64,000 nt of DNA from Candidatus Binatia bacterium (GCA_038245295.1 JBBRSP010000006.1:174021-238020); one strand, 5' to 3'; positions 18,261 through 51,968 are shown, counted from the first letter of the stretch. Notes: a model not told the origin generated them from the sequence alone. Translations and numbers: made by a program.

Positions 18261-18345
18261 AATTGTGAGAGGTTGGTGACCGAAGCCCCGGTCTTCAGAA
18301 GTTTAGCGCTCATCTTTATTTCCCCCTGCGTGGTATTTCACACCT

Positions 18346-24989: not shown

Positions 24990-25318
24990 GCGATGAGAAA
25001 CGCAAGAAATTGGCCGAACGCCTGCGAATGGCGCGCGAGGCGGCGAAACTCTCACAGGATGATGTTGCCCGAGAGCTCCTACTTCCTCGCCCGGCTATCT
25101 CACAGATCGAGAATGGGCATCGACGCGTGGAGGCGTTGGAACTGGCGCGCCTCGCGAAGCTTTATGGACGTCCCCTCGGCTTTTTTGCGGACGAAGAACC
25201 AATGGGTGCCGATGCGCTGTACCGCACTACGGCGGCCCTTTCGGAAAAGGATCGCGCCGAGGTGCTTCGATTCGCCGAGTTCCTTCGTCAAAAGGCCGAT
25301 GACACGGGGGAGCCGTGA
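24986..25318 (+). CDS. XRE-family HTH regulator (ImmR-like partner of the ImmA peptidase)
   Basis: LRMAREAAKLSQDDVARELLLPRPAISQIENGHRRVEALELARLAKLY. Immediately upstream of, and overlapping, the ImmA-like gene. Confidence 0.6.
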   Translation: MSDEKRKKLAERLRMAREAAKLSQDDVARELLLPRPAISQIENGHRRVEALELARLAKLYGRPLGFFADEEPMGADALYRTTAALSEKDRAEVLRFAEFLRQKADDTGEP

Positions 25319-26325
25319 TGGTCGAAGTTGTGCGAGAGGCGATTCTGCGTGGCATAGGCGGTGCTGCGGAGGCTCATGATGCTTTCAGGTTTCGGCAGCG
25401 CCATGAGGATGGCCTGCGTGCAATCGATGTCTTCGGCGTCATCGCGGAGCTAAAGCTCCCACTTGCGTTTCAGGCTCTCGACGAATTGTTGGGCGCGTGT
25501 ATCAGGGTGAGCAGCAGTGAAGTTGGAATCCTTGTCACTTCGCAACGTGATCTACACATGCAGCGTTTCACTGCGGCTCATGAGCTTGGGCACTTCGTCT
25601 TGGAGCATGAAGGCAGCCTAGACCGCGAGATCCGGTTGCCCGGCGATACGAAGGGGCGTGATCCGCGCGAGATCGAAGCCGACGCATTCGCCGCGGAATT
25701 CTTGATGCCCAAATGGCTCGTCAAAGCTGCGGCCCAGCGACGGCATTGGTGGGGTGACGACCTGTTGCGGATCCCGGAAGTCGTCTACCAACTCTCACTC
25801 CGACTTGCCGTCAGCTATGAGGCTACATGTTGGGGATTGGCTGCCCACGACTTTGTCCGACGTGATGTAGCAAGAGCCCTCACTGTCAAAAAACTGAAGG
25901 ACGTCAAGAAGAAGGTCCTTAGAGGTGTTCCGCTAGGCGACCCATGGGCCGACGTTTGGCAACTCGGTTCGGGAGACGATGGTGCTCAGCTCGACGCTGG
26001 CCCAAACGATCTCTTCGTCTTCGAACTCGCGGAAAGGGCCGCATCGGGATTCCGATGGGATGTGCAATCCGCAATCGATACGGGCTTCGCCCTTCTCGCC
26101 GACACGAGCGAGTTCGACGAGCGGGTGGTTGGTGGACAAAGCGAGCGGCGTTTGGTCCTCAGCGCGCCTCCGCCAGGCACTTATGAGCTTCACTTGCCGT
26201 TGCGGCGCTCCTTTGAGGCAACACCAGCCAACGGAACAGCGTTCAGTATCTCGATTTGTACGATCGGAACTCGACGCGACGAGTATCCGGCGGAGTTTTC
26301 TACGGCGGTAAGCACAGTGCACTAA
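25315..26325 (+). CDS. ImmA/IrrE-family Zn-metallopeptidase domain protein with an extra C-terminal domain
   Basis: HEXXH motif AAHELGHFVLEH and downstream EIEADAFAAEFLMP. The stop TAA overlaps the next ATG (TAATG). Confidence 0.6.
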   Translation: MMVEVVREAILRGIGGAAEAHDAFRFRQRHEDGLRAIDVFGVIAELKLPLAFQALDELLGACIRVSSSEVGILVTSQRDLHMQRFTAAHELGHFVLEHEGSLDREIRLPGDTKGRDPREIEADAFAAEFLMPKWLVKAAAQRRHWWGDDLLRIPEVVYQLSLRLAVSYEATCWGLAAHDFVRRDVARALTVKKLKDVKKKVLRGVPLGDPWADVWQLGSGDDGAQLDAGPNDLFVFELAERAASGFRWDVQSAIDTGFALLADTSEFDERVVGGQSERRLVLSAPPPGTYELHLPLRRSFEATPANGTAFSISICTIGTRRDEYPAEFSTAVSTVH

Positions 26326-26948
26326 TGGAAGTGATCCACGTGCTGCCTTCGGTTCGGGATCAGGGTGAGAGGGGAACTTGCCTCAGTATCGCAATGACCG
26401 ACGGACATCACGCGTCGCGCGCTGAGCCGCCCCCGCTGGCTGTCGACTTCCTGCATTTCAATGCGTCAACCCTCGCCGGGGTTGGTATCAATGATGCGGT
26501 CCCTGTGACCGCCGCGATGCTGGCACTCGAGGACGATGGCCAACCGATGGAGTCGGAGTGTCCATACTCCCCTATTGCGCTCCCAAGTACGTGGCTACCG
26601 CCGAAGACAATTGGCAAAATCTGGCGCCAGAAGACGGCCGTGCAATACAAGCATCCATGGGCGGTTATTGCAGCGCACGTCGGCATCGGCCAAGCGGCCG
26701 TCCTCGCGTTGAAAATCGACGACGCCTTTTGGAGCCCGGTGAATGGAGTCATTGATACCCCGATTGGTCCACCTCGGGCATTGCACGCCGTCCTCGCTGT
26801 AACCGCGGCCACTACTCCTCCGACTCGTGTTCTTGTGCGCAATAGCTGGGGTCCGAATTGGGGCGTCGGCGGTTACTCGTGGCTTTCCTCAGCATACGTG
26901 GCGGCATACTGTTTAGCGGTGATCACATTCCAAGGAGCGATTGAATGA
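26325..26948 (+). CDS. Papain-like (C1 family) cysteine peptidase, no pro-domain
   Basis: Cys motif DQGERGTCLSIAMT (compare QGxCGSCWAF). His/Asn region HAVLAV...VLVRNSWGPNWGVGGYSWL (compare NSWGxxWGExGY). Confidence 0.5.
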   Translation: MEVIHVLPSVRDQGERGTCLSIAMTDGHHASRAEPPPLAVDFLHFNASTLAGVGINDAVPVTAAMLALEDDGQPMESECPYSPIALPSTWLPPKTIGKIWRQKTAVQYKHPWAVIAAHVGIGQAAVLALKIDDAFWSPVNGVIDTPIGPPRALHAVLAVTAATTPPTRVLVRNSWGPNWGVGGYSWLSSAYVAAYCLAVITFQGAIE

Positions 26949-27745
26949 CACCAATAGTTCAGACGACCTGCGAACTCGCTTGGCTTGAGGCAGCCGAACA
27001 CCTTGCGCAGGTCAGCGACAATAGTGAGTACAACCTTGTCGTCGAAATCGCGAAGCCGACGTGGCATACGGCTGCAGACCTGCGCGTGCGCGCGACGGTC
27101 GACCAGTTTCTTCGTCGCCACAACACCCACCCGATCTCTACCGTGGCGGGCACTATATTTCCGGCGGCCGAGTACGTAAATCACGGCGTTCGTGGAGTGT
27201 ATGAATTCTACCCCGAGCAGGTATATCCCGCGATCAAGGAATCCACGGAATGGGGCCGATATGCGTACCGCCTGGTCCGCTGGGAGACTGCCTCGGGTAG
27301 AGTCATTAACCCTCTCGAGATCCTCATTGGGAAGATGAAGCAGCAACTCACGAATGGCAGACGCATGAGGGCGTGCTATGAGCTGTCCCTCGCGGATTCG
27401 GCGATTGACCTTCCGCTCTATGATCCGACTATTGATGCTCATCAAGCTCGTGGTGGTCCTTGCCTCTCCCATGTGAGTTTGAAGCTCGGCGCAGCGGACA
27501 CCCTCTACCTCACGGCGTTGTACCGCTCGCACTCGTACGTCGCGCGAGCGCTTGGGAATTTTCTTGGACTTGCAGATCTTCAAGCGTTCATCTGTGAACA
27601 GACGGGACTCTCCCCAGGACCGCTGATGAGCGTCTCGAGTTACTCCCGGCTTGAGACCGACGGCGGATGGTCGCGGGGGGAGGCGCTCCATCTCGTGAGG
27701 GATGCGCGCTCAGCATTCAACGGGGCAGTTCATGCGGCTGCGTGA
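26945..27745 (+). CDS. Thymidylate synthase / dCMP-dUMP hydroxymethylase-fold protein (divergent)
   Basis: GGPCLSHVSLKLGAADTLYLTALYRSHSYVARALGNFLGLADLQAF aligns by eye to E. coli ThyA [41 protein letters not shown]. The catalytic Cys is retained. The RSCD Asp is not conserved. Confidence 0.45.
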   Translation: MTPIVQTTCELAWLEAAEHLAQVSDNSEYNLVVEIAKPTWHTAADLRVRATVDQFLRRHNTHPISTVAGTIFPAAEYVNHGVRGVYEFYPEQVYPAIKESTEWGRYAYRLVRWETASGRVINPLEILIGKMKQQLTNGRRMRACYELSLADSAIDLPLYDPTIDAHQARGGPCLSHVSLKLGAADTLYLTALYRSHSYVARALGNFLGLADLQAFICEQTGLSPGPLMSVSSYSRLETDGGWSRGEALHLVRDARSAFNGAVHAAA

Positions 27746-28772
27746 ATACCAAGCGGCAGCCAAGAGCACCGATCAGTTCCCGAAAACGAAAGCGATCAAG
27801 GGGGCGAACAGCTCGCTTCAAAAGGCCGAACTGGTGCCACTCCTCGGCTTGACTGGCGAGATCGGTGCGTTGCTTTCCGAGTACAAGAAACTGCTTCGAG
27901 ATGGTCCCATTCATCTGCGGTTTTCTGATCGTCTCAAAGAGGAACTCGGCGACATCCTTTGGTATGTGGCGACTGTAGCGACAAAGTTCGATCTGCCCCT
28001 GGAGGAGATCGCTCGTCTGAACCTAAAGAAAGTGGCCGACCGATGGTCAAAGCCTCGACGCCGTGAGCCGTTGGACACATCCTACCCGCCCAACGAACGG
28101 CTGCCGCGAAGGTTTACGTACCGGTTCACCTACGAACATCGGAAGGACCTAACGCGGGGCGTTGCTGTCGTCGATCACGACGGCACGCGCATCGGCGACC
28201 TGCTTACGGACAACGCTCACGAGAACGATGGCTATCGATTTCACGACGTCATGCATTTCGCGTTCGTGGCGTTGCTTGGTTGGTCGCCTGTCGTACGCAA
28301 GCTTTTGCAGAGAAAACGCAAGAGCATCCGGAGCTCGGACGAAGTTGAGGACGGGGGGCGGGCAGGAGTCGTAGACGAAGCGATTGTGGCGATGGTGTTC
28401 GACTATATTCAGCATGACCTCGCTTCAACAACCGGAATGACCCGTATCGACTCCGATACTCTCCGCAGCATTCGCGCCCTTACCCGAGGGTTTGAAGTCA
28501 ACGTGCGAACCGAAGCGGAGTGGGAAGAGGCGATCCTGAAGGGCATCGAGGTATGGCGGCAGATCGAGGCTCACGATGGCGGAACAGTGGTCGGAGACTT
28601 TACGCGTCGCTCCTTCACGTTCAGTCCGAAGGGTGGACGAAGTCGAAGGAGATCTGCTCACGTCGCGAACCCCGTGCCGCGCCGTCGTAGGGCAAAGGAG
28701 CCCCGTTCAACTTCCACTTCGGTGGGTAGAACTGGGGTAGCGGATCGAGACTCGGCGAGAAGTTCTGTTTGA
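27732..28772 (+). CDS. MazG-like all-alpha NTP pyrophosphohydrolase domain protein with an unknown C-terminal domain
   Basis: Start MRLREYQ. Motifs LGLTGEIGALLSEYKK and EELGDILWYVA (EExGE / EELGDxLW MazG/HisE signatures). Confidence 0.55.
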   Translation: MRLREYQAAAKSTDQFPKTKAIKGANSSLQKAELVPLLGLTGEIGALLSEYKKLLRDGPIHLRFSDRLKEELGDILWYVATVATKFDLPLEEIARLNLKKVADRWSKPRRREPLDTSYPPNERLPRRFTYRFTYEHRKDLTRGVAVVDHDGTRIGDLLTDNAHENDGYRFHDVMHFAFVALLGWSPVVRKLLQRKRKSIRSSDEVEDGGRAGVVDEAIVAMVFDYIQHDLASTTGMTRIDSDTLRSIRALTRGFEVNVRTEAEWEEAILKGIEVWRQIEAHDGGTVVGDFTRRSFTFSPKGGRSRRRSAHVANPVPRRRRAKEPRSTSTSVGRTGVADRDSARSSV

Positions 28773-29898
28773 TGCGTGTTCGGCCCGAAATGCCGACGCA
28801 TTCGGGATGCGCCACACGGGCATATTTGCTCACCTCGCAAAAGAGATTCTGGTGATCAATTAGTTGTAAGGGGCGAATACCCCCCAGCTTGTCAAACTGG
28901 AGGCCCAGCCGATCAAATTCGACTTCGGCGATCGAAGCGACGTAGCCGATTATTTCGCTCTCGGCCATTCCGGAAGTGTTGCTGAAGCACTTCACAATTC
29001 CGTCGAGCGCACCAGGTCCTGGAACTACGAAATCCATTTCGGAAAAATCGGTTAGTTCGCTGTAGTTGACGTCAATCGCATACTGGAACGCGAGAAATGC
29101 ACCCAGCGATGGGTAGCTGCGGAGGATTGCAAAAACCTCCTCAAGAGACTTAGCCCTACCGACTCGACTTGGAGTACCGTCGCGCATCATTCGTTCAAGA
29201 AGCTGAAGATGATTGCGATGTTTCCGAGGACTGCCGAACGGAGGCGACGGCATGATGTACGCAGCAGAGTAAAGACGCTGACCCCGCGCATAGGCGGCGT
29301 CTAGGATCCGACCATATCTCTCCTCGTCGAAGCCGTACCACGCCGGAAGTTCTCCGAGTTGGTTGATCAGGAGCTCCCAAGTCCCGATGCGGTTAAAGAA
29401 TTTGAAAAGAAGAATTCGAAAGAAGACGTCATCCGCATGCTGAGACCCTTCGTAGATCACATGCCGAATCAGATACTGACTTACCCGATCCGATGCGCGG
29501 TAGGCATTTGTGAACCGGTGCGAAGCAATGATCGGATCGCTGCTCCACGGCAGCGACGCACCCTCAACGCGACGCATGAAGACTGCTTGTCGCTCGGCCG
29601 CAAAGCGCCAATAGGTATCAAAGACAGGCGTAGCTTCGACCGCCCGCCTGTAGGTTGCCTGAAGCAATCGTCCCAACCGAACACCCTCCTCCGTCCCCGA
29701 CGAGCGAAGCAAGGATATCCGCAGATGGCTTGGAGGTCCACCGCAAGACGTGGTGTTTTTGAGCTTCGCAGCAAAAGGTGCGAAGCGATCTGACGCGACG
29801 AAAGAACGAACCCGATCGGAGGGTCCGTTTTGTTTCGCGTCATTGCGCCTGGAATTTGACGAGGTCCGTTGCGCTTGTGCGTCGTTGCCGAGACACAT
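28621..29898 (-). CDS. Hypothetical protein (425 aa), convergent, low-GC
   Basis: Large ORF with about 50% GC over 28800-29500. No confident motif. Confidence 0.3.
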   Translation of the reverse strand: MCLGNDAQAQRTSSNSRRNDAKQNGPSDRVRSFVASDRFAPFAAKLKNTTSCGGPPSHLRISLLRSSGTEEGVRLGRLLQATYRRAVEATPVFDTYWRFAAERQAVFMRRVEGASLPWSSDPIIASHRFTNAYRASDRVSQYLIRHVIYEGSQHADDVFFRILLFKFFNRIGTWELLINQLGELPAWYGFDEERYGRILDAAYARGQRLYSAAYIMPSPPFGSPRKHRNHLQLLERMMRDGTPSRVGRAKSLEEVFAILRSYPSLGAFLAFQYAIDVNYSELTDFSEMDFVVPGPGALDGIVKCFSNTSGMAESEIIGYVASIAEVEFDRLGLQFDKLGGIRPLQLIDHQNLFCEVSKYARVAHPECVGISGRTRIKQNFSPSLDPLPQFYPPKWKLNGAPLPYDGAARGSRREQISFDFVHPSD

Positions 29899-29904
29899 GG
29901 CAGC

Positions 29905-29956
29905 CTTCAGCGCTTTCCAGAATTGACCCGGGCCTGCTCGTCAAAAGTGACCCACC
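29905..29956. repeat. ~52-bp repeat (copy A). Contains GAATTGACCC and GTGACCCACC half-sites. Coincides with a decayed serine-recombinase 5' end.
   Basis: CTTCAGCGCTTTCCAGAATTGACCCGGGCCTGCTCGTCAAAAGTGACCCACC. About 75% identical to 51915-51968. The minus-frame translation gives ...GSILESAEG, like the recombinase N-terminus GSILTSAED. Confidence 0.6.
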
Positions 29957-30162
29957 AAAATATCGCGACCAACCCTTCCAGAGACCATCGAACGCCGCCT
30001 TGATGTTCGATACCGCAGTGCTCGGACGCGTCAAGCGCCCGTCGATCAGCGTGCCATATTGCAGCGTAGTTTCGGGCGCTTGACCCATCCTGCGCGCCGC
30101 GGCCTGAGTCTTTAGGCGGCTTGGCTCGTAGTGTTCGGATTTCGGCAAAAATGAAGCGAACG

Positions 30163-30178
30163 ATTGGCGCGCGCCAAT
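30163..30178. repeat. Perfect 16-bp palindrome ATTGGCGCGCGCCAAT adjacent to repeat copy B
   Basis: Read directly from the sequence. Confidence 0.6.
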
Positions 30179-30184
30179 TGTTCG

Positions 30185-30238
30185 CAGGTGGGTCAATTCT
30201 GACGAGCGAAGGTGGGTCAATTCCGGCGAGCGCTGAAG
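30185..30238. repeat. ~54-bp repeat (copy B), inverted relative to copies A and C. Contains a tandem GGTGGGTCAATTC.
   Basis: Its reverse complement CTTCAGCGCTCGCCGGAATTGACCCACCTTCGCTCGTCAGAATTGACCCACCTG matches 51915-51968. Confidence 0.65.
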
Positions 30239-30242
30239 TACA

Positions 30243-30310
30243 GTAGCTGCACCAGCGGCCGAGTCGGCGATAAAGCTGCGTGGCTCGATTTCGTGAACGA
30301 CGAGGCATCC
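30243..30310 (-). pseudogene. Fragment homologous to the 3' end of the Cas4-like PD-(D/E)xK nuclease gene at 35830-36744
   Basis: The minus-strand translation ...QLYRRLGRWCSYC matches the C-terminus ...RFYRRPGRWCSYCDYLPVC. About 70% nucleotide similarity to 35880-35960. Confidence 0.45.
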
Positions 30311-30705
30311 TACGCGATGTATTTCTTTGAGATCGCCGGGTTCGCGACGACTCGCCTGCCCACTCAGTCAGAAAGATCGCATCGGAGGCGACATTCGACT
30401 GATTGAGAAGGTCATTGAAATGCGCGAGCGGTATCCCGATCCCGTTGCCGCCGTCCCCTCCACCCGCACTTGCTAATCGACAAGACCTTCGAAGGTGTCG
30501 GTAAACTGAAGAAGGAACAGCGCGAACTTTGTTGTCACCACAGGCAAGGAAGCGATGGGAAAATGCATCGGCGAGACCGGCATGCGCGAGCTGCGCAAGA
30601 GGGGCTTCATCAAGTAACGAAAAGTAGCGAGCTTCGGCTGCCCCAGAATGCGGCCCGCGGCACGAAGTGCCCTGTCACCATCCCTCTATACCTCGACACC
30701 GATGC

Positions 30706-33045
30706 CTATCGTCGAAGGAGTCGGTCGAGCCACGAGCGCCGATGTGGCGTAGCTTCGGACGGTTGTGACAACTCACCCCGGATTTGCCCCGGGCTTGGAG
30801 GGCTAGCACTCTTCGATACGACGACGCCGGGAGACCGATACGCCTCTGCTGGTGGAATCGGTTCCCCGCTTGCCCGGGCGATGGCCTGACCGTAGATCGA
30901 CCAAGCCGTTTCGACATCTTTCGACAGCGGTTCCGCAATCCTCCCGAAGCCCGAACGGCCAAATTGATCAACAGTTGGCGCCTGACCAAGTGCTTCCGAC
31001 AGCTGAAGGTACCACAATGACTCTTCGGCCAAGCGCTTGAGCTGATGGTTACGCTGTTGTGCTTCGACCTGCACCTTGGCTTCTTCGGGGTTTGCCACTA
31101 GGCTCCTTCGCTCGAACGGTTGTCCACCAAGCGCACAGAAAACCGACCACGTGAATCCGACGCGATCCGCCGGCATGATGGTCTCGCGTGTCGGCATTCG
31201 CGGGGCCTTCTCTCGGATGGTTGCATACAGCCCGCTGACGTCACCACCGAACCAATGGTTCGTGGCTCCCGCGCCGAATTTCATGAACTGCTTGAGAGTC
31301 GGAGGCTTTCCTCGATCCGCGAGCATACGATGGAATCGCTCTGCGGCACCTCGGATCTCCGTCTCCCAGCGGGCATGCAGGTAGCTATCAAGATACCCCT
31401 CGGCCCATGCGCGACGATGCTTGGTGATGATGTCGCGCAGGAACTCGAATCCTTCCCGCCGTGTACCACTGGAGGTCTGTATGCGTATTGAGACACCGGG
31501 GAATACCTCTGTTTTCGAGGATCGGTCGACGATCTCTTGTGGAGGCCCGAGCTTCGTCTCACCCAGACGGAGTTCTTCAAAAAGGTCCCTCGGTATTGGG
31601 CACTGAAGCTCCTGGAGGATGTCGACGTCCGCCGCATGGTACTGCGACAGACCTGCCATGTCGGTGCGCGAGGATGGACCCTCGCAAAGAAACCATGCTG
31701 TGAGAGCGCAGCCGTGCCAGACCCTGAGCGCGGCTCCAAAGGTCTGCGCCATGGCGGTATGCGGAAACGGCTCACTTACGACCCGATCTGGAAAGCGTTC
31801 TAAAACGGTCGTACCCCAGAGACGATCAATCTCCACGATAAGGTCTGCGGATAGGAAATCGCGGTAAAGGCCAGGCGTGTAGGGAGAACGCCACACGTCG
31901 TCAAACGTGATGAAGCCGCCCTCGTCGACAAGGCCCCAGAGTGACGGTTTCCCGGGGAGCTGCCGAGCATGCACCTCGTCGAACGCACTCCAGTACTTCC
32001 GCAGCGCAGCAACGCGTCGCTCAACCGGCGAAGACGTCCCAGTCTCCGCCCAGTAGGTGGAGAGGATATCTCGCACAGCGTCGGGAGAAACTCCCTGAGC
32101 CGCCGCGATTTCTTTCACCTGCCTCTTCGCCCTGACAAAGGGGCGAACTTTGGGGAGTGCCGTAATGATCTGCTCGTCCGGATGCGGTGGCTCGCCAATA
32201 TATTCGAGAAACGCCAACCAGCTCCCACCGAAGAACGCTGAAAGTAGGCGCTGGTACGGTTTGGTCAAAACCTGTTTCTTTTTTGGGGCGCCGTTGCGGG
32301 CGCTTTCGTAGTAACGCTGGACGAGTGTGACAAGAGCGGACGCTCGATAATGCTTGGCCTTGTCCACGCCAACCTGGTTTCCGAGCGCGCTCAAGAGCGC
32401 CCGCTTCACGTCCAGCTGCTCGGCAATCGCCATCGTGCTCCAATCGCGACCAGATCGCATCGGGCTGAGTTGATCCCCGACCTGGAAACCCATCGCACTC
32501 AGGTTCTCCGTCGCAGATGCCCACGCTCGTTGCGCGTCCTCCCGACTCATCGTGCCGGAACGATGTCCACGAAGAGCGAACACTTCGAACAAGCGCTCGA
32601 ACAAGGGTTCGAGCATTGCCCAGGAGAACACGGCGTCTGATGCAGTCTTGAAGATCACGCTCGCTTTCTCGGCGATTGTGGCTCCCCAGGCGAAGCGATC
32701 CTGCTGTCGGAAGTGAGCAGGAAAGTTCGCCATGCCGATTGAGACGCTTGCCCTCTCCGGGAAGTACCAGGCACCTTGAGAGTTCTGACCTTCAAGGCTG
32801 AAGACGCTATCCAGAAACTTCCGCTGCCGAGTGTCGAGGCCCGCGACACTCACGTCGTCGTTCCCGCGCGGACCGCCACGATGCGTAATGACCGTCTCAC
32901 CATGAAGTCCTCGCGCCAGCACGGTAGCAACAACCTCATCGATTTCTTCGAATACGATGCCAGCACGGTGCTCGACCTCGAGCGCCAATAGCTGCGATGG
33001 CTGAGCAAGAATCATTCGCCCAAAGGTGTCCAAGCGATCACTCAT
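30706..33045 (-). CDS. Hypothetical protein (779 aa), translationally coupled to the upstream DUF559-helicase
   Basis: Its start overlaps the helicase stop by 4 nt. No confident motif. Confidence 0.35.
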   Translation of the reverse strand: MSDRLDTFGRMILAQPSQLLALEVEHRAGIVFEEIDEVVATVLARGLHGETVITHRGGPRGNDDVSVAGLDTRQRKFLDSVFSLEGQNSQGAWYFPERASVSIGMANFPAHFRQQDRFAWGATIAEKASVIFKTASDAVFSWAMLEPLFERLFEVFALRGHRSGTMSREDAQRAWASATENLSAMGFQVGDQLSPMRSGRDWSTMAIAEQLDVKRALLSALGNQVGVDKAKHYRASALVTLVQRYYESARNGAPKKKQVLTKPYQRLLSAFFGGSWLAFLEYIGEPPHPDEQIITALPKVRPFVRAKRQVKEIAAAQGVSPDAVRDILSTYWAETGTSSPVERRVAALRKYWSAFDEVHARQLPGKPSLWGLVDEGGFITFDDVWRSPYTPGLYRDFLSADLIVEIDRLWGTTVLERFPDRVVSEPFPHTAMAQTFGAALRVWHGCALTAWFLCEGPSSRTDMAGLSQYHAADVDILQELQCPIPRDLFEELRLGETKLGPPQEIVDRSSKTEVFPGVSIRIQTSSGTRREGFEFLRDIITKHRRAWAEGYLDSYLHARWETEIRGAAERFHRMLADRGKPPTLKQFMKFGAGATNHWFGGDVSGLYATIREKAPRMPTRETIMPADRVGFTWSVFCALGGQPFERRSLVANPEEAKVQVEAQQRNHQLKRLAEESLWYLQLSEALGQAPTVDQFGRSGFGRIAEPLSKDVETAWSIYGQAIARASGEPIPPAEAYRSPGVVVSKSASPPSPGQIRGELSQPSEATPHRRSWLDRLLRR

Positions 33046-35123
33046 GAATCGAGTTCTTTGATGATCTCTAAGTATTGCTCGAACGTGACCGGCTCGGGCG
33101 AGTTTTGCGCATAGACTGCGTAACGCTGCGCAAGGGCTTCGCGTTCACGTTCTTGCCGGCGCTGCTCCACGCGTCGCTCGTCATGCACCAGTCGCTCTTC
33201 AACGGCCCCACGCTGGAAGACCACAAACGTTTCTGGGCGCCCCGCTGCGTCCTGCCCACGCGTACCCGGCAGGTCCTCCGTGGCGGACACACGACTCCAT
33301 TCGGGCGGAATTTCATGGCTCGTGAGTGGGTCCATGTCGTTCTCTCGGTAGATTGTATCGATATGCTCGTCGAGACCCAGTTCCGCATGGTAGATGACGT
33401 CGAGAAACTGCTGATGTCCATCGGTCCGACCCACAAGCGCAGGATGCGTCAGCACTCGTATTCCGCGGCCGACAAACTGATAGAATTCGCTGAAGCTGTT
33501 GTACGGCCGCATCGGGACGATGACGGTAACAGGGGGAAAGTCATATCCCTGCCCCAGCATGCGTAGCTGGACGATCCCTTGCAGGTCGCCGGACTCTTGC
33601 TCAAAACGATCCCGGATCGCTGTGATTCGAGCATCCGTCATCGAGTGGTGCAGATGGGCGCACGGTATCCCGTGCTCTTCGGCGATCCGAGCGATTTGTT
33701 CGGCGTGGCGTTCTCCCAGGGCAGAGAAAAGAACGCGAGGCTTGATGGGATAGAGGGCCGATGTCTGTGCGTCCAGCGCCCCTCGGACGGCGCGCATTAC
33801 TTGGCGGATTGGCTCGGTCGATTTCGCTGTGATGCGCGCAAGCTTCCGCTCGTCCTGGATGAGTTCGAGAATCGCATCCCTACCCGCAATCTCCTCGCGT
33901 GCTCCGTCGGGCCATACTAACTCGTAGGTTGTCTGGGTCGGGTCCGGCGCGAATCGATACACCCGAAGATTCTTGGCGTTTCCATCGGCGATCGCGTCGA
34001 TGAGCCGGTAGCGATACACAACATCGGCATCGATGGACTTCCCGTCTAGCCGCTGAAAACACGCGGACATGAGAAGTGTGCGTGCGCCGGCAAAATGACG
34101 AAACGTCCTCTGGTACGATTCGGCCGCTGCGATGTGCGCTTCGTCAATGACGATGAAATCGATGTCGTCCGGTCGCAACTTCATCAAGAGGTCGTCCGCG
34201 TCTCCGCCGGTTCCAAGAGAGTGGAAGTTCGTCACGACTACGTCGGCACCGAGAAGCTGCTCGCGCGTGACATCGCGGATCGCCGCTTCATCTCGATCGA
34301 GAACCCGTACCTTTGGGGGGGGAGTGCCCGGAATCAGTGGGCCACCCGGGAGCCCATATAGGACGTTGCCAACGGCGCTGTGATCGAACGCTTTGGCGAA
34401 CGTGCCGCGGATGACACTGCCGGGCGTTACGACCAGCGCGCGCTTCCGAGTGAAGGCCAATGATGCCACAACGGCCAAGGCGGTCTTGCCGGATCCAACC
34501 GACATTACGCAGGCTGCTCTGGTCCCACCGGAGCGCAGATAGTTTGCCAGCGCAACTACCGCCTCCCTCTGACAGCTGCGGAGGGTGCGCTGATTGAGCT
34601 TGTCGCGTACCTGGTCGAAGTAGGTCATGGGTGCGCCGTTTCTCGATAGTTCCCCATCCCACCCGAAGGGACGCAGCGCCTTGAGCCGATCTGGATCCAT
34701 CTCGGGCGTCTCCACGACCGGATCGCGAAGCAACAAGACTTGGAGTGCGGGATCTGTAGCGAGAATCGTTTGGAGTTGGGAAACGCATCGACCCGTCTCT
34801 CGACGAATCGAGTCGTACGAAAATCTGACAACGACCCTCCCAGAACCCTGGAGGTCGTTCTGTCGCATGCGGTCGTAGCTAAAAGCTGAACGATGTCCAT
34901 GAAACTCGAACCCGTCGAGCTCGATGATGAAGGTCTTCTCGTCGCCCTGGATTTCATAATCGACCCGATAGCACCGTGTGCCGATCTCCAGCTCTCGCTG
35001 CGGAACCACGCGGGCACGGATCTCCCGTCTAGCGGCAGGCGCGAGGACCCAACGCAGGAACGCGTACTCGAGGAATGAGCTTGCCGCGACGTCCTCATAA
35101 AGTTTCGCATCATCCGGCATCTT
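33042..35123 (-). CDS. SF2 DEAD/DEAH-box helicase with an N-terminal DUF559/Vsr-like PD-(D/E)xK endonuclease-like domain
   Basis: N-terminus VDYEIQGDEKTFIIELDGFEFHG...DRMRQNDLQGSGRVVVRF (DUF559). Helicase motif I VMSVGSGKT, motif II VIDEAH and motif VI QFVGRGIR. An alternative longer start is at 35204. Confidence 0.6.
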   Translation of the reverse strand, partial: KMPDDAKLYEDVAASSFLEYAFLRWVLAPAARREIRARVVPQRELEIGTRCYRVDYEIQGDEKTFIIELDGFEFHGHRSAFSYDRMRQNDLQGSGRVVVRFSYDSIRRETGRCVSQLQTILATDPALQVLLLRDPVVETPEMDPDRLKALRPFGWDGELSRNGAPMTYFDQVRDKLNQRTLRSCQREAVVALANYLRSGGTRAACVMSVGSGKTALAVVASLAFTRKRALVVTPGSVIRGTFAKAFDHSAVGNVLYGLPGGPLIPGTPPPKVRVLDRDEAAIRDVTREQLLGADVVVTNFHSLGTGGDADDLLMKLRPDDIDFIVIDEAHIAAAESYQRTFRHFAGARTLLMSACFQRLDGKSIDADVVYRYRLIDAIADGNAKNLRVYRFAPDPTQTTYELVWPDGAREEIAGRDAILELIQDERKLARITAKSTEPIRQVMRAVRGALDAQTSALYPIKPRVLFSALGERHAEQIARIAEEHGIPCAHLHHSMTDARITAIRDRFEQESGDLQGIVQLRMLGQGYDFPPVTVIVPMRPYNSFSEFYQFVGRGIRVLTHPALVGRTDGHQQFLDVIYHAELGLDEHIDTIYRENDMDPLTSHEIPPEWSRVSATEDLPGTRGQDAAGRPETFVVFQRGAVEERLVHDERRVEQRRQEREREALAQRYAVYAQNSPEPVTFEQYLEIIKELDS

Positions 35124-35712
35124 CGGACTCGATTTGGCGCAGCCGCTCCGTGATTTCCTCGCGTTCCTCGGATCCCTGACCAAGCCGTTCTGCAGCTTCC
35201 GCAACCTTTAAAGCCTCGCGAAGATACCCTTCGTTCTGGTAAAGCCGAAGCAGATGGGAGAACGACAGAATCCCGAACTGGCGCACCACACCGTCGGCTT
35301 CGTAGGATACGGCCTCCGGAAGGGATTCGGCGAGGCTAATGTCGAGCCAGCAAAGGCGTTCGACTTCTACAAGAACTGAGGGTTCCTCTATCCTTCGCTT
35401 CCAGAGCTGATCGGCGACACCTTGGATCGCGAAGTGGTATTCACTCCCCGTTCCGGGCAGTTCGAGAACCTCGGACAGATGTCGGAGTAGTCCGACGGTT
35501 GATGCTTCCGAAGAGGAGTGCTGCGAAGCTGGAGACGCTGATGTCTTCCCGTTGCCGGTGAGCAGTGGCCAGCTCAAAGATTCCTCACGTTTGCCTTCCA
35601 TATCGAAGACGTGACGCTCCGGAACGGCATTCTGCCCTGGAAGCCTCCCAGTACGTGTCCCTTGATAGGTCACACCGGGAATGTCAGCGAAGCGTTTGAA
35701 CCACTGAGGCAT
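35110..35712 (-). CDS. Hypothetical protein (200 aa)
   Basis: ORF upstream of, and overlapping, the helicase start region. Confidence 0.3.
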   Translation of the reverse strand: MPQWFKRFADIPGVTYQGTRTGRLPGQNAVPERHVFDMEGKREESLSWPLLTGNGKTSASPASQHSSSEASTVGLLRHLSEVLELPGTGSEYHFAIQGVADQLWKRRIEEPSVLVEVERLCWLDISLAESLPEAVSYEADGVVRQFGILSFSHLLRLYQNEGYLREALKVAEAAERLGQGSEEREEITERLRQIESEDAG

Positions 35713-35829
35713 GGTAGGCCATTATTCACACGTGCTTGGAAGGCGGCAAGCGCACGCGACCTTTTCATTTCGAGAGAAAGAAAAGAAGAGCCCGATCGGA
35801 GTGATCCGTCGGGCTCGTTTGTGGTTGCG

Positions 35830-36744
35830 TCACGGGGCTAGAACTTTGACCAAGGTCCGCTCGGCAAGAGCTTCGTCGCCAAGGCACACGGGCAGGTAGT
35901 CGCAGTAGCTGCACCAGCGGCCGGGACGACGATAGAATCGCTCGGCCGTGATTTCTTGAGCGACATATCCGGCCTTCGCGATGTATCGGGTGAGATCGGC
36001 CGGTTCACGGCGACTGAGGTGCCATTCGATTTTGGGTTGAGTCGTTTTCACGAGGACACAGAGCGCCGTTTGGGTCGCATCGGGCTCCGCGAGTTGATAC
36101 GCGGTCAGTTGATCGGACAACGCGGCTTCAAACGGGGGGTACGTTGTGGCTGAAGTCTTGAAGTCGAGGACGGTTCGTTGGCCGTCGACATCGGCGACGA
36201 GATCGATGATGCCAACAAGTTTGAGCGAGAGACTGGTCACCGTCACGGTAAACGGTCGTTCCACGGCCCTGACCGTCGTGATGCGGCCGACATCCGTGCG
36301 CGCGAACTGTTCCATGAGGGTGACGCCGATGGCGAGGAGCTTGTCCCAAGACTCGCGGTCTTTGTAGCGAACCGGAGCTTGTCGGATCGCGTTCCACTGC
36401 GTACGGAAGGTGACCACCGGATCCTCGCCGCCCCGAAACAACGCCTCGAGGGCAGCGTGCACGATCTTGCCGAACACCAAACTCGCGTCTGGCACCCGGC
36501 GCCGCAGATTCTCGTGATAATACAGCCGATATTGCTCGGGGCAGTGCAGATATCGGCTGACGCGCGAATGGGAGAGATGAGGCGCCTGTTTTGAAACGCC
36601 TCCATTCTGTGTCCGTTCTTGCTCTGGTGCGTCCACGGTCAATCCCTTCGCACGGCGCGAAGCGGAGGTGCTGAGAGCGGCGGGAGTACCTGAGCGACGT
36701 TGGTGTAGCGGCCATCCGGACTTGGCTGTGTCGTGACTCCACAA
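35830..36744 (-). CDS. Cas4/RecB-like PD-(D/E)xK nuclease with four Fe-S-type cysteines
   Basis: N-terminal HLSHSRVSRYLHCPEQYRLYY. C-terminal C-x2-C-x5-C (WCSYCDYLPVC). The position of the true N-terminus is uncertain. Confidence 0.5.
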   Translation of the reverse strand: MWSHDTAKSGWPLHQRRSGTPAALSTSASRRAKGLTVDAPEQERTQNGGVSKQAPHLSHSRVSRYLHCPEQYRLYYHENLRRRVPDASLVFGKIVHAALEALFRGGEDPVVTFRTQWNAIRQAPVRYKDRESWDKLLAIGVTLMEQFARTDVGRITTVRAVERPFTVTVTSLSLKLVGIIDLVADVDGQRTVLDFKTSATTYPPFEAALSDQLTAYQLAEPDATQTALCVLVKTTQPKIEWHLSRREPADLTRYIAKAGYVAQEITAERFYRRPGRWCSYCDYLPVCLGDEALAERTLVKVLAP

Positions 36745-37535
36745 GGGATGTTCAGGATCGTGCCTTCGGTGAGCGGTTGCGGCGCGACGTAGCCGGCGGT
36801 CTCGATATGCTGCCGCAGCTGATCGGCCGAACCGAAGAGCTTAGAAGTGCGACCACCGATGTCGACAGTGACGAAGAGGCGCCGTCCCCATCTGCCGTCC
36901 ATTCCGCCGACGTCCACGAGTCGCGCCGGGACCGCGTTGTTGTTCCCGGTTGGCGGAGCGCCTTGCTCGCGTCGCACCGGCGGCGGTGTTGATGCTCCAT
37001 TACCATTGCGTTGCCGGTTCGGCCCAAGAAAGCGTGACACGATTCCCGACTGCACGAGTAGCATGTGATCGGCTTGGCTTTGAATCGAGTCGATGGTCAG
37101 CTGCTCGATCGGCGCGGAGAACTCAATCGAGAGCGAGTCGATTCTGCCATCCGGGCTGACACTACGCTTGAGCACCATCTGCGTTCCGCTGCCATGACCG
37201 TTGCCGTTCCCATTGGTCGTGGTCTTGCGTCTCCGCGGCGCGGGTGGCTCGTTTTGAATCGCGTTGCGCTCTGCCTGATCGTACGTGGCGAGCGGGCCAG
37301 AGCTAGTTCCGTGGAGCTGGTGCAGCACCGCCTGAACATGGGCGCAGTACTCACCCGTATGTGCATTCGCCTGAAACTCGGCGCATGTGCATTGCGGCAC
37401 ATCGGCACTGCCTGTCACCAGAAACTGTTGCCGCGGGTCGCTCGGCGCGTAAACGCGCCAGCCGTTCTCTGTTTCGCTGATGACGAGCGGCTCCTCTTGG
37501 TTCGCCAACGGTCGGGTTGATGTTGCGTGGTTCAT
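36639..37535 (-). CDS. SWIM zinc-finger protein
   Basis: CTCAEFQANAHTGEYCAH (CxCx(n)CxH). Confidence 0.4.
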   Translation of the reverse strand: MNHATSTRPLANQEEPLVISETENGWRVYAPSDPRQQFLVTGSADVPQCTCAEFQANAHTGEYCAHVQAVLHQLHGTSSGPLATYDQAERNAIQNEPPAPRRRKTTTNGNGNGHGSGTQMVLKRSVSPDGRIDSLSIEFSAPIEQLTIDSIQSQADHMLLVQSGIVSRFLGPNRQRNGNGASTPPPVRREQGAPPTGNNNAVPARLVDVGGMDGRWGRRLFVTVDIGGRTSKLFGSADQLRQHIETAGYVAPQPLTEGTILNIPCGVTTQPSPDGRYTNVAQVLPPLSAPPLRAVRRD

Positions 37536-37684
37536 TTCTCTTCCTCCTTCTGAAATTGGTTGGTGTGAAAGAACTGAGAGGAAGTGTGCGGCGGACAGAC
37601 GAACACCCGTAGGATGGCAGTAGTGCCGCTTGCGGCAATCGTCAGATCCTTCGTGGACGGTGCCGAGTCGCCGACAATGAGGGG

Positions 37685-38950
37685 ATGATCACGACCCTTG
37701 GCTTGACCACCTTCCGCGACGATCGCCGGCCATTCGGTATCCGGCGCGAAGATCGACGGGCGCACATCTACGCGATCGGGCAAACTGGCACAGGAAAGTC
37801 GACACTCCTGGAGACGATGATTCTCCAAGACCTCGCCGTCGGCGAAGGGCTGGCCCTTCTCGATCCGCACGGTGACCTGGTTGAGCGTGTGGTTTTGCGC
37901 GCGCCAGAGAACCGCCGCGAAGACATCATCTACTTCGACGCACCCAACCCGACGCAGCCGTGGGGCTTCAACCCGCTTGCCAATGTCCCGGCAGGCAAAC
38001 GAGCGCTGGCGGCGTCAGCACTCCTCGGTGCGTTCAAAAAACAGTGGGCCGAGTCCTGGGGACCGCGAACAGAGCACCTGTTGCGGAACAGCTTGCTCGC
38101 TCTGCTCGATCAGCCCAATGCGACGCTGGCTGACGTCTTGCGCCTCCTCTCCGACGAAGACTACCGCCGTAACGCAATGGCGAATGTCCAAAGCAGGACG
38201 GTGCGGAACTTTTGGCTGCGTGAGTACCGCGACTACACGGCGCGGCTAAGGGCGGAAGCTATTGCCCCACTCCAGAATAAGATCGGAGCTTTTCTCGCCG
38301 ACCCGCTCCTCCACCGTATTCTCACCGAGCCCGAGCAACTGCTCGATCTCCGCGCCATCATGGACAAGGGCCAAGTGCTGTTGGTGAACCTCTCGAAGGG
38401 AAGGCTCGGCGAAGACACCGCCGCCCTCCTGGGATCGCTCTTGGTCGCAAGCCTTGGGGCAGCGGCGTTCGGTCGCGCGGAACAAGAACCCGATCAACGC
38501 CGCGATTTCTGGGTCTACCTCGATGAGTTCCACAATTTCACGACGCTCAGTCTCGCGACGATGCTCTCTGAGCTGCGGAAATTCCATGTCGGTTTTATTC
38601 TGGTACACCAGTACATCGCTCAGCTCGGCGATGAGGTACGGGCCGCGGTCTTCGGAAACGTGGGAACGATCTGTTGCTTTCGCGTCGGCGCCGATGATGC
38701 CGAAGCGTTGGCGCCGCAGTTCGCGCCAGTCGTTACGTCACACGATTTGGTTCGCGTGCCAAATCATCACATGTACGTGCGCCTAATGGTCGATGGAAAA
38801 CCGACTGAGCCATTCAGTGCAGAGGCAAGATTACCGACAGTATATAAGGGAGGTAGCGGTGCTCTCTTGCCCGTTTTTGCCGCTTCATCCACAGCAGACG
38901 TGCACGTTGTTGACGACGACAATGGGGCTTGCGCTGCGATCGACGCGTAA
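37685..38950 (+). CDS. TraD/VirD4-like type IV coupling-protein-family P-loop ATPase (second copy)
   Basis: Walker A IGQTGTGKST, T4CP-like LLDPHGDL and Walker B WVYLDEFHNF. Confidence 0.6.
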   Translation: MITTLGLTTFRDDRRPFGIRREDRRAHIYAIGQTGTGKSTLLETMILQDLAVGEGLALLDPHGDLVERVVLRAPENRREDIIYFDAPNPTQPWGFNPLANVPAGKRALAASALLGAFKKQWAESWGPRTEHLLRNSLLALLDQPNATLADVLRLLSDEDYRRNAMANVQSRTVRNFWLREYRDYTARLRAEAIAPLQNKIGAFLADPLLHRILTEPEQLLDLRAIMDKGQVLLVNLSKGRLGEDTAALLGSLLVASLGAAAFGRAEQEPDQRRDFWVYLDEFHNFTTLSLATMLSELRKFHVGFILVHQYIAQLGDEVRAAVFGNVGTICCFRVGADDAEALAPQFAPVVTSHDLVRVPNHHMYVRLMVDGKPTEPFSAEARLPTVYKGGSGALLPVFAASSTADVHVVDDDNGACAAIDA

Positions 38951-39166: not shown

Positions 39167-42100
39167 TTGGGAAGGGGGTCACCAGTGGATCTCAGCAACC
39201 CGCCCGCATCGAGTTCCGCGGCCGTACGGTGGGCAGCACTTTTCCCACTGCGGGCTCTCATGGCTCTGATTCGGCGAGTGGTACGGCTAGCGGGGCGTCC
39301 CGTCTTACTCCTTCTGTTCAACGCTGCTTTCCTCCCCGATGTTGAATCAGCTGCAGCCAGTACGATAGCTGGCCAGATTCGCTATTTCGGAAGCGGACTG
39401 CCTGTCAGCGGTGTGACCTTGCAACTGCTTGGCTCAAATATAGCGTTCGTGCAGACCGACGGGAACGGCAAATACGCATTTACCAACGTGGGTCCCGGCG
39501 ACTGGCGTGTAGAGCCACAGAAATTTGGGGACGCACACGGCGCCCTGACGGCTCTAGATGCAGTTTGGGCGCTACAAGCTGTCGTCGGTCTTCGAACCAT
39601 TGACTCCTACAATCGAGTTGCTTGTGACACTGACGGAACCGGCTTTCTGAGCGCAGTCGATGCAGTGTTCATCCTTCAGTACAAGGTCGGCCTGATCAAT
39701 ATGTTGCCTTCGACTGAGACCTGTGGGTCGGAGTGGGCCTTTGACCCTGTGCCTTTTCCAGTCACCAATCAGCAGATCGACCGTCCGCAAGCAATGCCAG
39801 CGGGGTGCCGCCATGGCGACATTGCTTATCGCCCTCTGGTCGAGGACGTGGACAATCAAGATTTTCTTGCAATACTCGTAGGCGACTGCAACGGAAGCTG
39901 GCAAGGCGTTCCTGCCACGCCAACGCTAACGGTAAGTGCCTCGCCTTCTCCTACTCCTACGTTCGGTCCCGTATGTTTGACTTCCACCACCGTCGCGTTC
40001 TTTGACCCTATTCAAATGGGCGGGGACTCCATCAGTAGCAACCGTATTGAAGACGGCCTCGCTGCCGCCGCAAAGATAACACGCGGCGTCCTCATTCAAG
40101 GGTACTACGGACAACACACTGCGCCGCGCGAAGCTCGGCTGCGCGGGTTTGAGGTTGCGGCAAATGCCTCTCTGAATGGCACAGAAAATGATGCTACGGA
40201 GCTTGGGCTACTCGCCCAAGACACAAATACTGGAGTCGTCCAGTTTCCGATGGTAGGTGGATCAAACGCCATCACGGATCAACACCTTAGCGAATCATAT
40301 ATCGGAACCCAACTCGCAACGTTCCGCCGGTTAATTGCCGCAAATACATTGGTGGGCATGTCTGAACGCGCAAGCACAATGCTCGACACGACCCATCTTT
40401 CGTTCTTCGGTGCGACAGCTACTACGTCACCGGATGTTCTTGTTGCATCGATTCTTCCACAGATCTCGGGTGTAATAAGCCCTGTAGCTGGTCGGGATGC
40501 AGTTTTCAGCACCATTAACCAACTGCGACAGGCTTATCCGACAAAACCTCAGTACTATCTAGTCGGTTGGTCTACAACCGGCAGCTCTGTGACGGAACAA
40601 TCGTCCTTTGTACGGCTCGTGCTAGCAGCCCAGTCGGAACTCAAGAGCCAAGGTAATCTGGTTGATATTTGGTGGTACAACAACGAGGATGAACAGTGGC
40701 TGACCGCATACAGCAGGATTCTCGGTGGTTTCGGATTTGAATTTGAGAGCGATTTCTCGACGAAAGACCCATCTCTTTTTTCGAGCGCATGCTTACAAAC
40801 TGCTCCGTTCAGCCCCCCGACCGTTACGCCGATTATGTCACCCTTACGAACGACTACCCAGGCAGCGCCGCAGACAACGTCTGGCCCATCAACCTCGACA
40901 CCGATTCTGACTGCTACCGGCGTGTTTACACATAACATCATGGGGCCGACACCGTCAGCCACTCCCAGTCCTACCTCCATCCCCACACCGCCAGATCTCA
41001 CTTGGACTTCTCGGGGTGACGGATTGGCAGGCGGACAGGTTGAGACCAGTGTCATGTGGGGAGACAATCTCTACGCATTCGGGCTTGGTTCTCCAACCAG
41101 CCTTTATATCTTGAATACGGTCAGTAACGTTTGGCGCGAAGGGACTCCCACGCTCCAACAGGTGAACACCGGCAGCGCGGCAGCCTGGAATGGGGAGATT
41201 TTCGTTTTGTCGGGGTACGGCGAGCAACGCCTCCAGGTTTACACTGCAGCTACCGGACGTTGGCGCCTGGCCGCTCAACTGCCTGCCAGCCATCTTGGAT
41301 ACCCCGGGACGATGCTTATAGCCTTTGGTGCCAAGGTCTATGCGTTCGGAGGCATCCTTACGGATCAACTCAGCATCTACGATATCGCGACCGACAGTTG
41401 GAGTGCCGGGCACGCAATGCCGATGGCTCGCAGCTTGGCTGTCACCGCGGTGCTCCGCGACAAGCTGTACCTAGTTGGTGGTCAAACGTCCTTCGGGTTG
41501 TCTAGCCAAGTCGTCGTCTATGATCCTGCTTCGGAGGGCTACACCGTAGCGGATAACTCGACTGGAGATTGGACAACGCTCGACGGGCTTGTCGTCACCC
41601 GGCGCACTGCTTCGATAGGCGTAGTGGCAGACGATCAGATTTTTGTACTTGGTGGCCTCGAATTCTCTCAAGGGTTCGGGCAGGCGACTGCAATGGTCGA
41701 GTCTTATGATCCGAGCGCTCCTCCTTGGACTCGCTGGCGACGTCATGCTCCGTTACTCAGAAGCCGCGCTCATCTCGCAGGGGGTTCGATCGGGAACAAA
41801 CTCTATGTCGCGGCGGGACAGGATCTGGCGAGCGATATATCCTCCACAGAGGAAGGAACGCTCATTTACGTCCCGACCGCAACACCAACACCGCTCCCTT
41901 CTCAAACACCAACACCCACACCCACAGTCTTCTATTTAAATCTCATCGTAACGGATACGTATCTAGTAAATGTCGCGACTGGAAAACGAGTGGACAGTCC
42001 ACTCTTGGGACAACAGGTTCGCCCTTGCGTCGAATGGTTCGCCGAAGGGCCAAGTAGCTCGTCTATCGATCACGACGTCGCCACCTGGTATGATAGCGTG

Positions 42101-50254: not shown

Positions 50255-50288
50255 TAGGAAGCGCTGGCCGCTCACGGGTTCGATTCCC
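50255..50288 (+). other. tRNA/tmRNA 3'-end-like fragment (T-arm plus acceptor 3' strand). Probable att core.
   Basis: CACGGGTTCGATTCCCCCCGCCTCCAC. A T-loop TTCGATT is flanked by a G/C stem. It resembles a tmRNA/tRNA 3' end, but no complete cloverleaf exists upstream. Its complement encodes the recombinase C-terminus. Confidence 0.4.
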
Positions 50289-51954: not shown

Positions 51955-51968
51955 AGTTGACCCAGTCG
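51915..51968. repeat. ~54-bp repeat (copy C), direct to copy A and inverted to copy B. Spans the serine recombinase start codon.
   Basis: CTTCAGCGCTCGTGAGAATTGACCCACTTGCGCTCGGCAAAGTTGACCCAGTCG. Confidence 0.65.

Follow-up and report, generated by a model that had tools for sequence, protein, structure and literature searches.

Which of the genes that lie side by side at positions 30706-37535 of a 64,000-nt stretch of Candidatus Binatia bacterium DNA (GCA_038245295.1, JBBRSP010000006.1:174021-238020; the whole stretch is called the window here) belong together, and what might they do? A preliminary description had seen in this region a single nuclease-helicase cluster, made of a helicase-nuclease coupled to a 779-aa protein together with a Cas4-like nuclease and a SWIM zinc-finger protein, and had proposed the helicase and its 779-aa partner as an uncharacterised two-gene defence candidate. 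We found that the functional unit is a three-gene operon, whose genes are called C, B and A from first to last, and that the Cas4-like and SWIM genes belong to a module of their own. The reading that we favour is that C-B-A is a self-contained, horizontally mobile anti-phage or anti-plasmid system.

The three genes of the cassette overlap one another (Table 1). The open frame of B spans 33042-35204 and its actual start, according to the gene call, is the ATG at 35120. The stop codon of B and the start codon of A share the letters ATGA, which bears out the 4-nt translational coupling seen earlier between the helicase and the 779-aa gene. The stop of C overlaps the start ATG of B by 11 nt, and 11-nt overlaps are also present in the Leptolyngbya copy of the cassette. 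Gene C had been overlooked in the preliminary description; because this conserved 200-aa gene overlaps B, the unit consists of three genes and the helicase does not come first, so that neither the two-gene composition nor the helicase-first order could be upheld.

The extent of the unit was examined from both of its larger genes. A genome scan with one genome per species (185,579 species) identified relatives of A in 127 species, from which 80 loci were fetched, and the proteins of the window were compared by tblastn with a total of 83 A-anchored loci. A second test used the helicase as the starting point on metagenome contigs and yielded 80 B-anchored loci, 61 with room for A and 73 testable for C, bringing the number of cassette loci to 163. 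Starting from A, gene B was directly upstream in 81 of the 83 loci and C was upstream of B in 78 of the 83, with gene order and strand constant in all but one rearranged locus; the misses include loci at contig ends (L021, L027, L028 and L076) as well as rearranged or decayed loci (L053 and L080). From the helicase side, 57 of 61 loci had A next to B and 68 of 73 had C; the exceptions include one truncated helicase remnant. The pairing of helicase and 779-aa protein therefore holds in both directions. When 1,240 open reading frames (ORFs) from the A-anchored loci were clustered, only A, B and C were broadly common, and no counterpart of the Cas4-like, SWIM, 112-aa or 133-aa ORFs of the window was present in any of the 83. 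C and A also occur as natural fusion proteins (P0277, P0274 and P0314). On the strength of this co-conservation, the 11-nt overlaps and the C-A fusions, the products of the three genes very probably form one complex.

The next commonest ORF cluster was found in 14 loci, nearly all from Streptomyces. These loci (13 from Streptomyces and one from Actinoallomurus; L029, L031 and L032 are among them) share a conserved ORF of ~1766 aa that precedes the cassette by ~1-6 kb, and 11 of the 14 also have a gene of ~390 aa ahead of it; this may be another co-localised system.

Protein B is a superfamily 2 (SF2) helicase with an N-terminal Vsr/DUF559 domain, as had been proposed. Pfam searches returned ResIII (1.7e-13), Helicase_C (1.1e-7), DUF559 (8.5e-6) and MTES_1575 (6.6e-6); ResIII and Helicase_C were above their cut-offs and the DUF559 match scored 26 bits against a cut-off of 20.6. 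More specifically, helicase motifs I (GSGKT), II (DEAH), III (SAC) and VI (GRGxR) were invariant across 58 non-redundant cassette helicases, as was the nuclease motif YRxDY...ELDGFxFH...YDRxRQND, and residues D54, E67, D69 and H74 (692-aa numbering) were invariant across 22 aligned cassette helicases. The Pfam match above cut-off and the conserved acidic and histidine residues place the N-terminal region of B in the Vsr/DUF559 fold and make it a predicted nuclease, while the four motifs and the ResIII and Helicase_C matches identify the SF2 helicase. Sequences of B from different phyla are 53-71% identical. The best PADLOC match, mREase_IV (4.2e-15), involves the helicase part only (residues 340-589), and the best PDB match, 7clg (4e-8), is confined to residues 337-402 in the helicase core. 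Along with such SauUSI-type type IV enzymes, type I/III Res subunits have the helicase cores closest to that of B; weak helicase matches to RadD and UvrB were also obtained. Several cassette copies carry a split helicase ORF.

Protein A was described at the outset as having no recognisable fold, and our searches agree. The family comprises 134 full-length matches, all named hypothetical, and 616 representatives at 50% identity. The confident AlphaFold model of A (pLDDT 86.5, pTM 0.77) gave no Foldseek match with E<1e-3 in PDB or BFVD, no profile match was found among PDB sequences, and neither A nor C matched a family in Pfam, PADLOC, NCBIfam or PHROGs. HNH_repeat (PF18780) was matched by 5 of 32 members of family A, with a best E value of 4.8e-6, and A contains three G(K/R)xPTxKQF...FGG(D/S)W-type motifs that are weakly related to one another by internal-repeat statistics. 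Together, these matches and weak internal repeats suggest that A contains helical DNA-binding repeats.

An exhaustive profile search uncovered proteins that share residues 338-740 of A alone, at 40-46% identity, and have other N- or C-terminal parts. These module-bearing proteins include the SngA-like proteins P0297, P0312 and P0278, the kinase fusion P0285, and P0291 and P0293; the central region of the SngA subset is 40-44% identical to the module of A. In P0312 (TerB_N 3e-19, SngA 3e-35) the module stands between TerB_N and TerB_C. P0297 matches TerB_C (3.8e-13) and SngA (1.4e-14), and the genes that follow it score 2e-168 for SngB and 3.5e-216 for SngC, which makes this a genuine Shango operon. 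In P0285 the module is joined to a Ser/Thr kinase domain (3e-40). Within family A itself, some members bear TerD, HIRAN or DUF2510 tails, the C-terminal TerD domain scoring 7.8e-24 and leading to the PGAP label ‘TerD family protein’. Fusion to a kinase, TerD, HIRAN and DUF2510 is a pattern typical of the domains of conflict systems. We tentatively suggest, at somewhat less than even odds, that the cassette represents an unnamed, widespread defence family in which the 338-740 region of A would be a novel domain for sensing or regulation, common to Shango SngA variants and kinase-fused proteins.

Protein C is the smallest of the three, and its 54 relatives are likewise all named hypothetical. 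The very confident AlphaFold model (pLDDT 95.1) consists of an N-terminal beta-hairpin region and a helical, TPR/PPR-like C-terminal half, and the family has an invariant ELPG..YH motif. Comparison with known structures gave weak TPR-like fold matches only, and a profile search of PDB sequences detected a PPR/TPR motif alone, at residues 152-178.

Based on these features, we propose a mechanism in which B would be the effector, an ATP-driven SF2 translocase whose N-terminal Vsr/DUF559-type endonuclease would cut DNA. A would act as the sensor or specificity subunit, recognising invader DNA or a cue of infection and then recruiting or licensing B, and C, a small protein with a TPR-like half, would be an adaptor that holds the complex together. 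As had been noted earlier, no methyltransferase is present among the window neighbours scanned with Pfam, nor are cas genes, and repeat analysis of the window found no CRISPR-like array. Given that a methyltransferase is lacking, self and non-self cannot be told apart as in classical restriction-modification. One option is a type IV-like specificity for modified DNA, to which the likeness of the B helicase to SauUSI and the absent methylase both point.

The cassette was compared with known systems in PADLOC v2.0.0 (2023), Pfam 2025, NCBIfam 2026 and PHROGs. In PADLOC, A and C remained without a match up to E ≤ 1, and B had generic helicase matches only. The papers found on DUF559/MTES_1575 helicases in defence, on TerD with helicases in anti-phage activity and on SngA/SngC do not describe the cassette. 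The cassette, A and C are thus undescribed in these libraries and papers; as a candidate, the cassette falls within the known helicase-nuclease kind of defence and does not constitute a new category. Of the original candidate, the uncharacterised status stands, the two-gene composition does not, and a defence function is what we infer.

The closest parallel is Shango, an anti-phage system made of the TerB-like SngA, the ATPase SngB and the helicase SngC, which was validated in Pseudomonas aeruginosa and E. coli and whose mechanism is not known (PMC10250203; bioRxiv 10.1101/2022.05.11.491447). Like the cassette, Shango is a three-gene operon that joins an SF2 helicase to a large non-enzymatic partner and is found in defence islands, and the 338-740 module of A recurs in a subset of SngA proteins, one of them in the SngABC operon mentioned above. 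However, A lacks TerB, TerB_N and TerB_C (Pfam, 32 members) and has no SngA match at E ≤ 1. The cassette also has no SngB/BrxD-type ATPase, the helicase being its sole ATPase and the 200-aa TPR-like C occupying that position. Lastly, the 11 PADLOC matches of B at E ≤ 0.01 do not include SngC, which itself lacks the N-terminal Vsr/DUF559 nuclease of B. As none of the three Shango components is present, identity with Shango was ruled out: the cassette uses a part that it shares with Shango and is not Shango.

Other systems resemble B rather than the whole cassette. Hhe, reportedly described by Gao et al. in 2020 as a single-gene system that consists of an SF1 (superfamily 1, Upf1-like) helicase with a C-terminal Vsr endonuclease, shares with B the placing of a helicase and a Vsr/MTES_1575-family endonuclease, the presumed effector, in one polypeptide. 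In contrast, B is an SF2 helicase with its nuclease at the N-terminus and two conserved partners; it has no PADLOC Hhe match, and this and its strict linkage to A and C led us to reject Hhe. SauUSI-type type IV enzymes (mREase_IV; 7clg) give the best match to the helicase core of B, and no methyltransferase partner is found in either. B nevertheless has Vsr/DUF559 in place of the phospholipase D (PLD) nuclease, no DUF3427-like target-recognition domain, and A and C as partners; with the helicase core alone matching and neither PLDc nor DUF3427 found by Pfam, B is not a SauUSI-type enzyme. Type III and ISP restriction enzymes likewise fuse a ResIII-family helicase to an endonuclease, a likeness that suggests translocation-coupled DNA cleavage, whereas the cassette has no Mod methyltransferase or methylase domain in any locus and the nuclease of B is Vsr-type and N-terminal where theirs is a C-terminal PD-(D/E)xK domain. 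A type III restriction-modification system was excluded on account of the missing methyltransferase, both in the cassette at every locus and among the scanned window neighbours. The preliminary description had also found no fit to Hachiman, Druantia or type III layouts, in agreement with PADLOC, which detected none of these systems and no HamA, HamB or DruE match for A, B or C; Hachiman and Druantia were discarded accordingly. The only Druantia match in the cluster is DruK (7e-5), for the Cas4-like gene. The Streptomyces telomere and conjugation helicase TtrA came into question on account of several Streptomyces copies situated close to contig ends, and was rejected because B has no HA domains in Pfam; TtrA is a DEAD-box helicase with tandem HA domains (bioRxiv 10.1101/2024.11.13.623437).

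The distribution of the cassette is patchy. It occurs in ~0.07% of the species scanned (127 of 185,579) and in at least seven phyla, namely Actinomycetota (Streptomyces and others), Acidobacteriota, Myxococcota, Chloroflexota, Cyanobacteriota, Gemmatimonadota and Bacillota, the last represented by one metagenome-assembled genome. Clustering of the flanking ORFs showed that the loci are not syntenic. Streptomyces linear plasmids carry the cassette, with a DUF262 protein adjoining it; in Leptolyngbya the neighbour is a prokaryotic Argonaute with a PD-(D/E)xK nuclease partner, one locus has a TrwC relaxase and an IS110 element, and another context has XRE regulators and Uma2. Among 92 distinct large neighbour ORFs from 55 loci were Menshen NsnB (2e-120), PARIS AriA, OLD/Gabija/Septu-type ATPases, three integrases and CHAT proteins. 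These contexts are variable islands and mobile elements instead of a core repair operon. A phage origin was dismissed, as searches of IMG/VR and of INPHARED phages brought up no relative of A. In a further locus (L088, 1-6101) QueC, SNF2 and DEAD helicases and transposases lie beside the cassette. This last neighbourhood resembles a Dpd-type system, which introduces 7-deazaguanine modifications into DNA.

Table 1 Coordinates of the cassette, its domains and the adjoining features in the window
Feature	Position	Strand	Remarks
Gene C	35110-35712	-	200 aa; first gene of the cassette; overlaps B by 11 nt
Gene B	33042-35120	-	692 aa; Vsr/DUF559 endonuclease fused to SF2 DEAH helicase; predicted effector
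Gene A	30706-33045	-	779 aa; without known family or fold; predicted sensor/specificity partner
Vsr/DUF559 (MTES_1575-type) nuclease domain of B	34761-34988	-	Pfam DUF559 and MTES_1575 matches; invariant motif
SF2 helicase core of B	33450-34607	-	ResIII, DEAD and Helicase_C matches; motifs I, II, III and VI
Shared module, A residues 338-740	30826-32034	-	Similarity to SngA-like and kinase-fused proteins
Promoter-like site (TTGCCG, 17-nt spacer, AATAAT)	35721-35749	-	Just 5' of the ATG of C
GC-rich hairpin and T-rich run, terminator-like	35771-35816	-	After the Cas4-like stop; divides the Cas4-like gene from the cassette
Cas4-like PD-(D/E)xK nuclease, four Cys	35830-36636	-	268 aa (independent gene call); outside the cassette
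SWIM zinc-finger protein	36639-37535	-	298 aa; outside the cassette
TrwB/VirD4-like coupling ATPase	37685-38950	+	Divergent from the SWIM gene; TrwB_AAD_bind 8.5e-13
Remnant of the 3' end of a second Cas4-like gene	30241-30410	-	Downstream of A; abuts the left inverted-repeat arm
Inverted-repeat left arm, 50 nt	30189-30238	.	Partner arm 51915-51964, in 5' region of large serine recombinase ORF

Upstream of the cassette, the two proteins named in the preliminary description are present as described. The RecB/Cas4-like nuclease matches PDDEXK_1 (8.3e-31) and contains the C-x2-C-x5-C motif (CSYCDYLPVC) in addition to an N-terminal cysteine. It is not a CRISPR Cas4: its score of 40.9 against the cas4 family TIGR00372 is below the cut-off of 65, no array was found, and there is no cas gene among the neighbours. 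The SWIM protein has a C-x-C-x12-C-x-H motif (C49, C51, C64 and H66) that is invariant across 28 homologues, although its Pfam match (1.4e-3) falls below cut-off; its family counts 483 matches, with no relatives in IMG/VR or PLSDB. The arrangement of the window, with the Cas4-like gene after SWIM and a divergently transcribed TrwB-type ATPase before it, is repeated exactly on two unrelated contigs, L090 (7702-10727) and L091 (6868-10622), where the cassette is missing. The trio recurs in contigs of uncultured Binatia and others, and no match to it was found in IMG/VR or PLSDB. The cargo around the trio in L090 and L091 comprises toxin-antitoxin, PLD-helicase, SIR2-NACHT and reverse-transcriptase genes, and the TrwB/VirD4-like ATPase has a weak PADLOC mad8 match. 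The trio is a module separate from the cassette; it is probably the backbone of an integrated element, which may be of an undescribed integrative kind.

The promoter-like site is the only sigma-70-like match in 30200-38000, as a consensus match only, and the hairpin has a computed energy of -10.6 kcal/mol, obtained on a truncated stem; the motif scan that gave the promoter-like site did not report this hairpin. The remnant downstream of A is ~73% identical to 35830-36000 and ends at RWCSYC, so that the cassette is flanked by an intact Cas4-like copy and by a remnant copy. This 3' remnant indicates that the cassette was inserted next to the Cas4-like gene, as cargo at the end of the block. It also means that the 133-aa ORF at 29907-30308 is probably chimeric and not a gene.

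The location inside a block bounded by an inverted repeat, as reported earlier, was likewise found to be correct. The two 50-nt arms are 84% complementary and enclose a 21.7-kb block, at the end of which the cassette lies and which also holds the serine recombinase, an IS3 element and a SIR2-TPR gene. Each arm consists of two copies of a 24-nt unit containing GGTGGGTCAATTC, and the recombinase ORF into whose 5' region the right arm falls spans 50272-52395. The repeat may mark the ends of an element, an invertible segment or binding sites of the recombinase. The motif GGTGGGTCAATT was absent from all related loci searched.

Several other genes of the window were recorded alongside the cassette. 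Just outside the inverted-repeat block, a nucleotide and DNA hypermodification gene cluster occupies 25315-29898, with an M78/IrrE peptidase carrying a chagasin-like domain, a papain-like peptidase, a 266-aa thymidylate-synthase-like protein (TIGR03283 1.5e-11) and MazG with MazG_C (7e-64) on the plus strand and, convergent on the minus strand, a 5-hydroxymethyldeoxyuridine (5-hmdU) DNA kinase (HMUDK_hel 6e-108) that lies 800 nt downstream of A. Systems built from thymidylate-synthase and 5-hmdU kinase domains have been validated as defence in their own right (PMC13092281). Within the block, 39167-44164 encodes a 1665-aa protein with Kelch beta-propeller repeats, CarboxypepD_reg and CARDB, an unusual cargo for a mobile element, and 48066-50129 encodes a 687-aa SIR2_2 and MalT-like TPR protein; the architecture of the latter, and that of a 776-aa protein with a SAM domain, an adenylate/guanylate cyclase and AAA_16 (53289-55619), is typical of immune sensors. 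Finally, a 995-aa SMC_N/AAA_21 (AbiEii-like) ATPase and a divergent DUF5677 protein at 15273-19386 are a possible defence pair, adjoined by a tyrosine integrase (13893-15080) and a primase (12419-13498).

Four other explanations were weighed, each of them less likely than a mobile three-gene defence system. The single cluster of the preliminary description, in which the Cas4-like nuclease and the SWIM protein would act with the helicase and the 779-aa protein, has in its favour that the genes are adjacent on one strand and that pairs of a helicase with a Cas4/AddB-like nuclease exist in other systems. It is nonetheless highly improbable, since the Cas4-like and SWIM genes are missing from all 163 cassette loci (83 of 83 A-anchored and 80 of 80 B-anchored), the hairpin with its T-run and the promoter-like site stand between the Cas4-like gene and C, SWIM, Cas4-like and the divergent TrwB-like ATPase recur as a module without the cassette, and the Cas4-like remnant downstream of A reveals an insertion beside that gene. 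The cassette might alternatively be the restriction arm of a DNA hypermodification system, in which the thymidylate-synthase-like protein, MazG/MazG_C and the 5-hmdU kinase would modify the DNA of the host or the element, and cleavage by C-B-A would depend on the absence, or the presence, of the modification. The kinase gene downstream of A, on the same strand and with MazG_C and the thymidylate-synthase-like gene beside it, would fit this scheme, as would an Actinoplanes cassette locus (L025) where differently arranged HMUDK and MazG homologues lie within 6 kb, the locus with QueC and several helicases, and the likeness of the helicase to a modification-dependent type IV enzyme, its nearest relative of solved structure. 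However, 161 of the 163 cassette loci have no nearby HMUDK or MazG_C homologue and the HMUDK cluster of the window is outside the inverted-repeat block that holds the cassette; moreover, as the thymidylate-synthase/5-hmdU kinase systems defend on their own, adjacency to the cassette may be mere clustering within a defence island, and we regard this arrangement as unlikely.

The least improbable of the four, though still doubtful, is a housekeeping role for mobile elements, with the cassette as a DNA-processing helicase-nuclease complex by which integrative, conjugative or linear-plasmid elements would be transferred, replicated or maintained. A TrwB-like ATPase (in the window) or a TrwC relaxase adjoins the cassette, copies are found on Streptomyces linear megaplasmids typed as mobilizable, and several Streptomyces copies are near contig or chromosome ends. 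Against this, most loci have no conjugation genes within 10 kb, B does not carry the HA domains of TtrA (bioRxiv 10.1101/2024.11.13.623437), a constitutively active Vsr-type nuclease would be unusual for transfer, and the cassette behaves like swappable cargo. A chromosomal Ter-associated system for stress response or DNA repair, which would act on damaged DNA in response to a signal from metal, calcium or the membrane, seems just as unlikely as the hypermodification scheme. It draws on the C-terminal TerD of some A members, the position of the A module between TerB_N and TerB_C in SngA-like proteins, one A variant that ends in HIRAN, a domain with affinity for 3' ends of DNA, and the weak RadD and UvrB helicase matches; yet the cassette is rare, patchy and not syntenic, some copies have a split helicase ORF, and Shango and Bunzi are examples that now tie such Ter-domain proteins to phage defence (bioRxiv 10.1101/2022.05.11.491447).

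We assign a probability of about 0.6 to C-B-A being a self-contained, horizontally mobile three-gene anti-phage or anti-plasmid system. Several points hold this figure down. With no PADLOC match for A or C, the assignment to defence proceeds by guilt by association; the defence-like neighbours are a raw tally from 55 loci, and ordinary metabolic genes immediately flank the cassette in some loci. A DNA-binding role for A would depend on weak HNH_repeat matches and weak internal-repeat statistics.

The corrected unit matters for any construct, as one without gene C, or one that included the Cas4-like and SWIM genes, would test the wrong unit. If the cassette is a defence system, it would be a three-gene helicase-nuclease family common in Streptomyces, Acidobacteriota, Myxococcota, Chloroflexota and cyanobacteria, groups that are under-sampled by E. 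coli-based defence screens, and two of its three proteins, A and C, have no known fold or family. The ~400-residue module of A links the cassette to Shango. If our suggestion for this module is true, it would be a shared invader-sensing unit that couples to varied effectors, namely the Vsr-helicase in the cassette, SngB/SngC in Shango and a Ser/Thr kinase in other proteins, and it would offer a handle on the mechanism of Shango, as a common sensing domain could be studied in either system.

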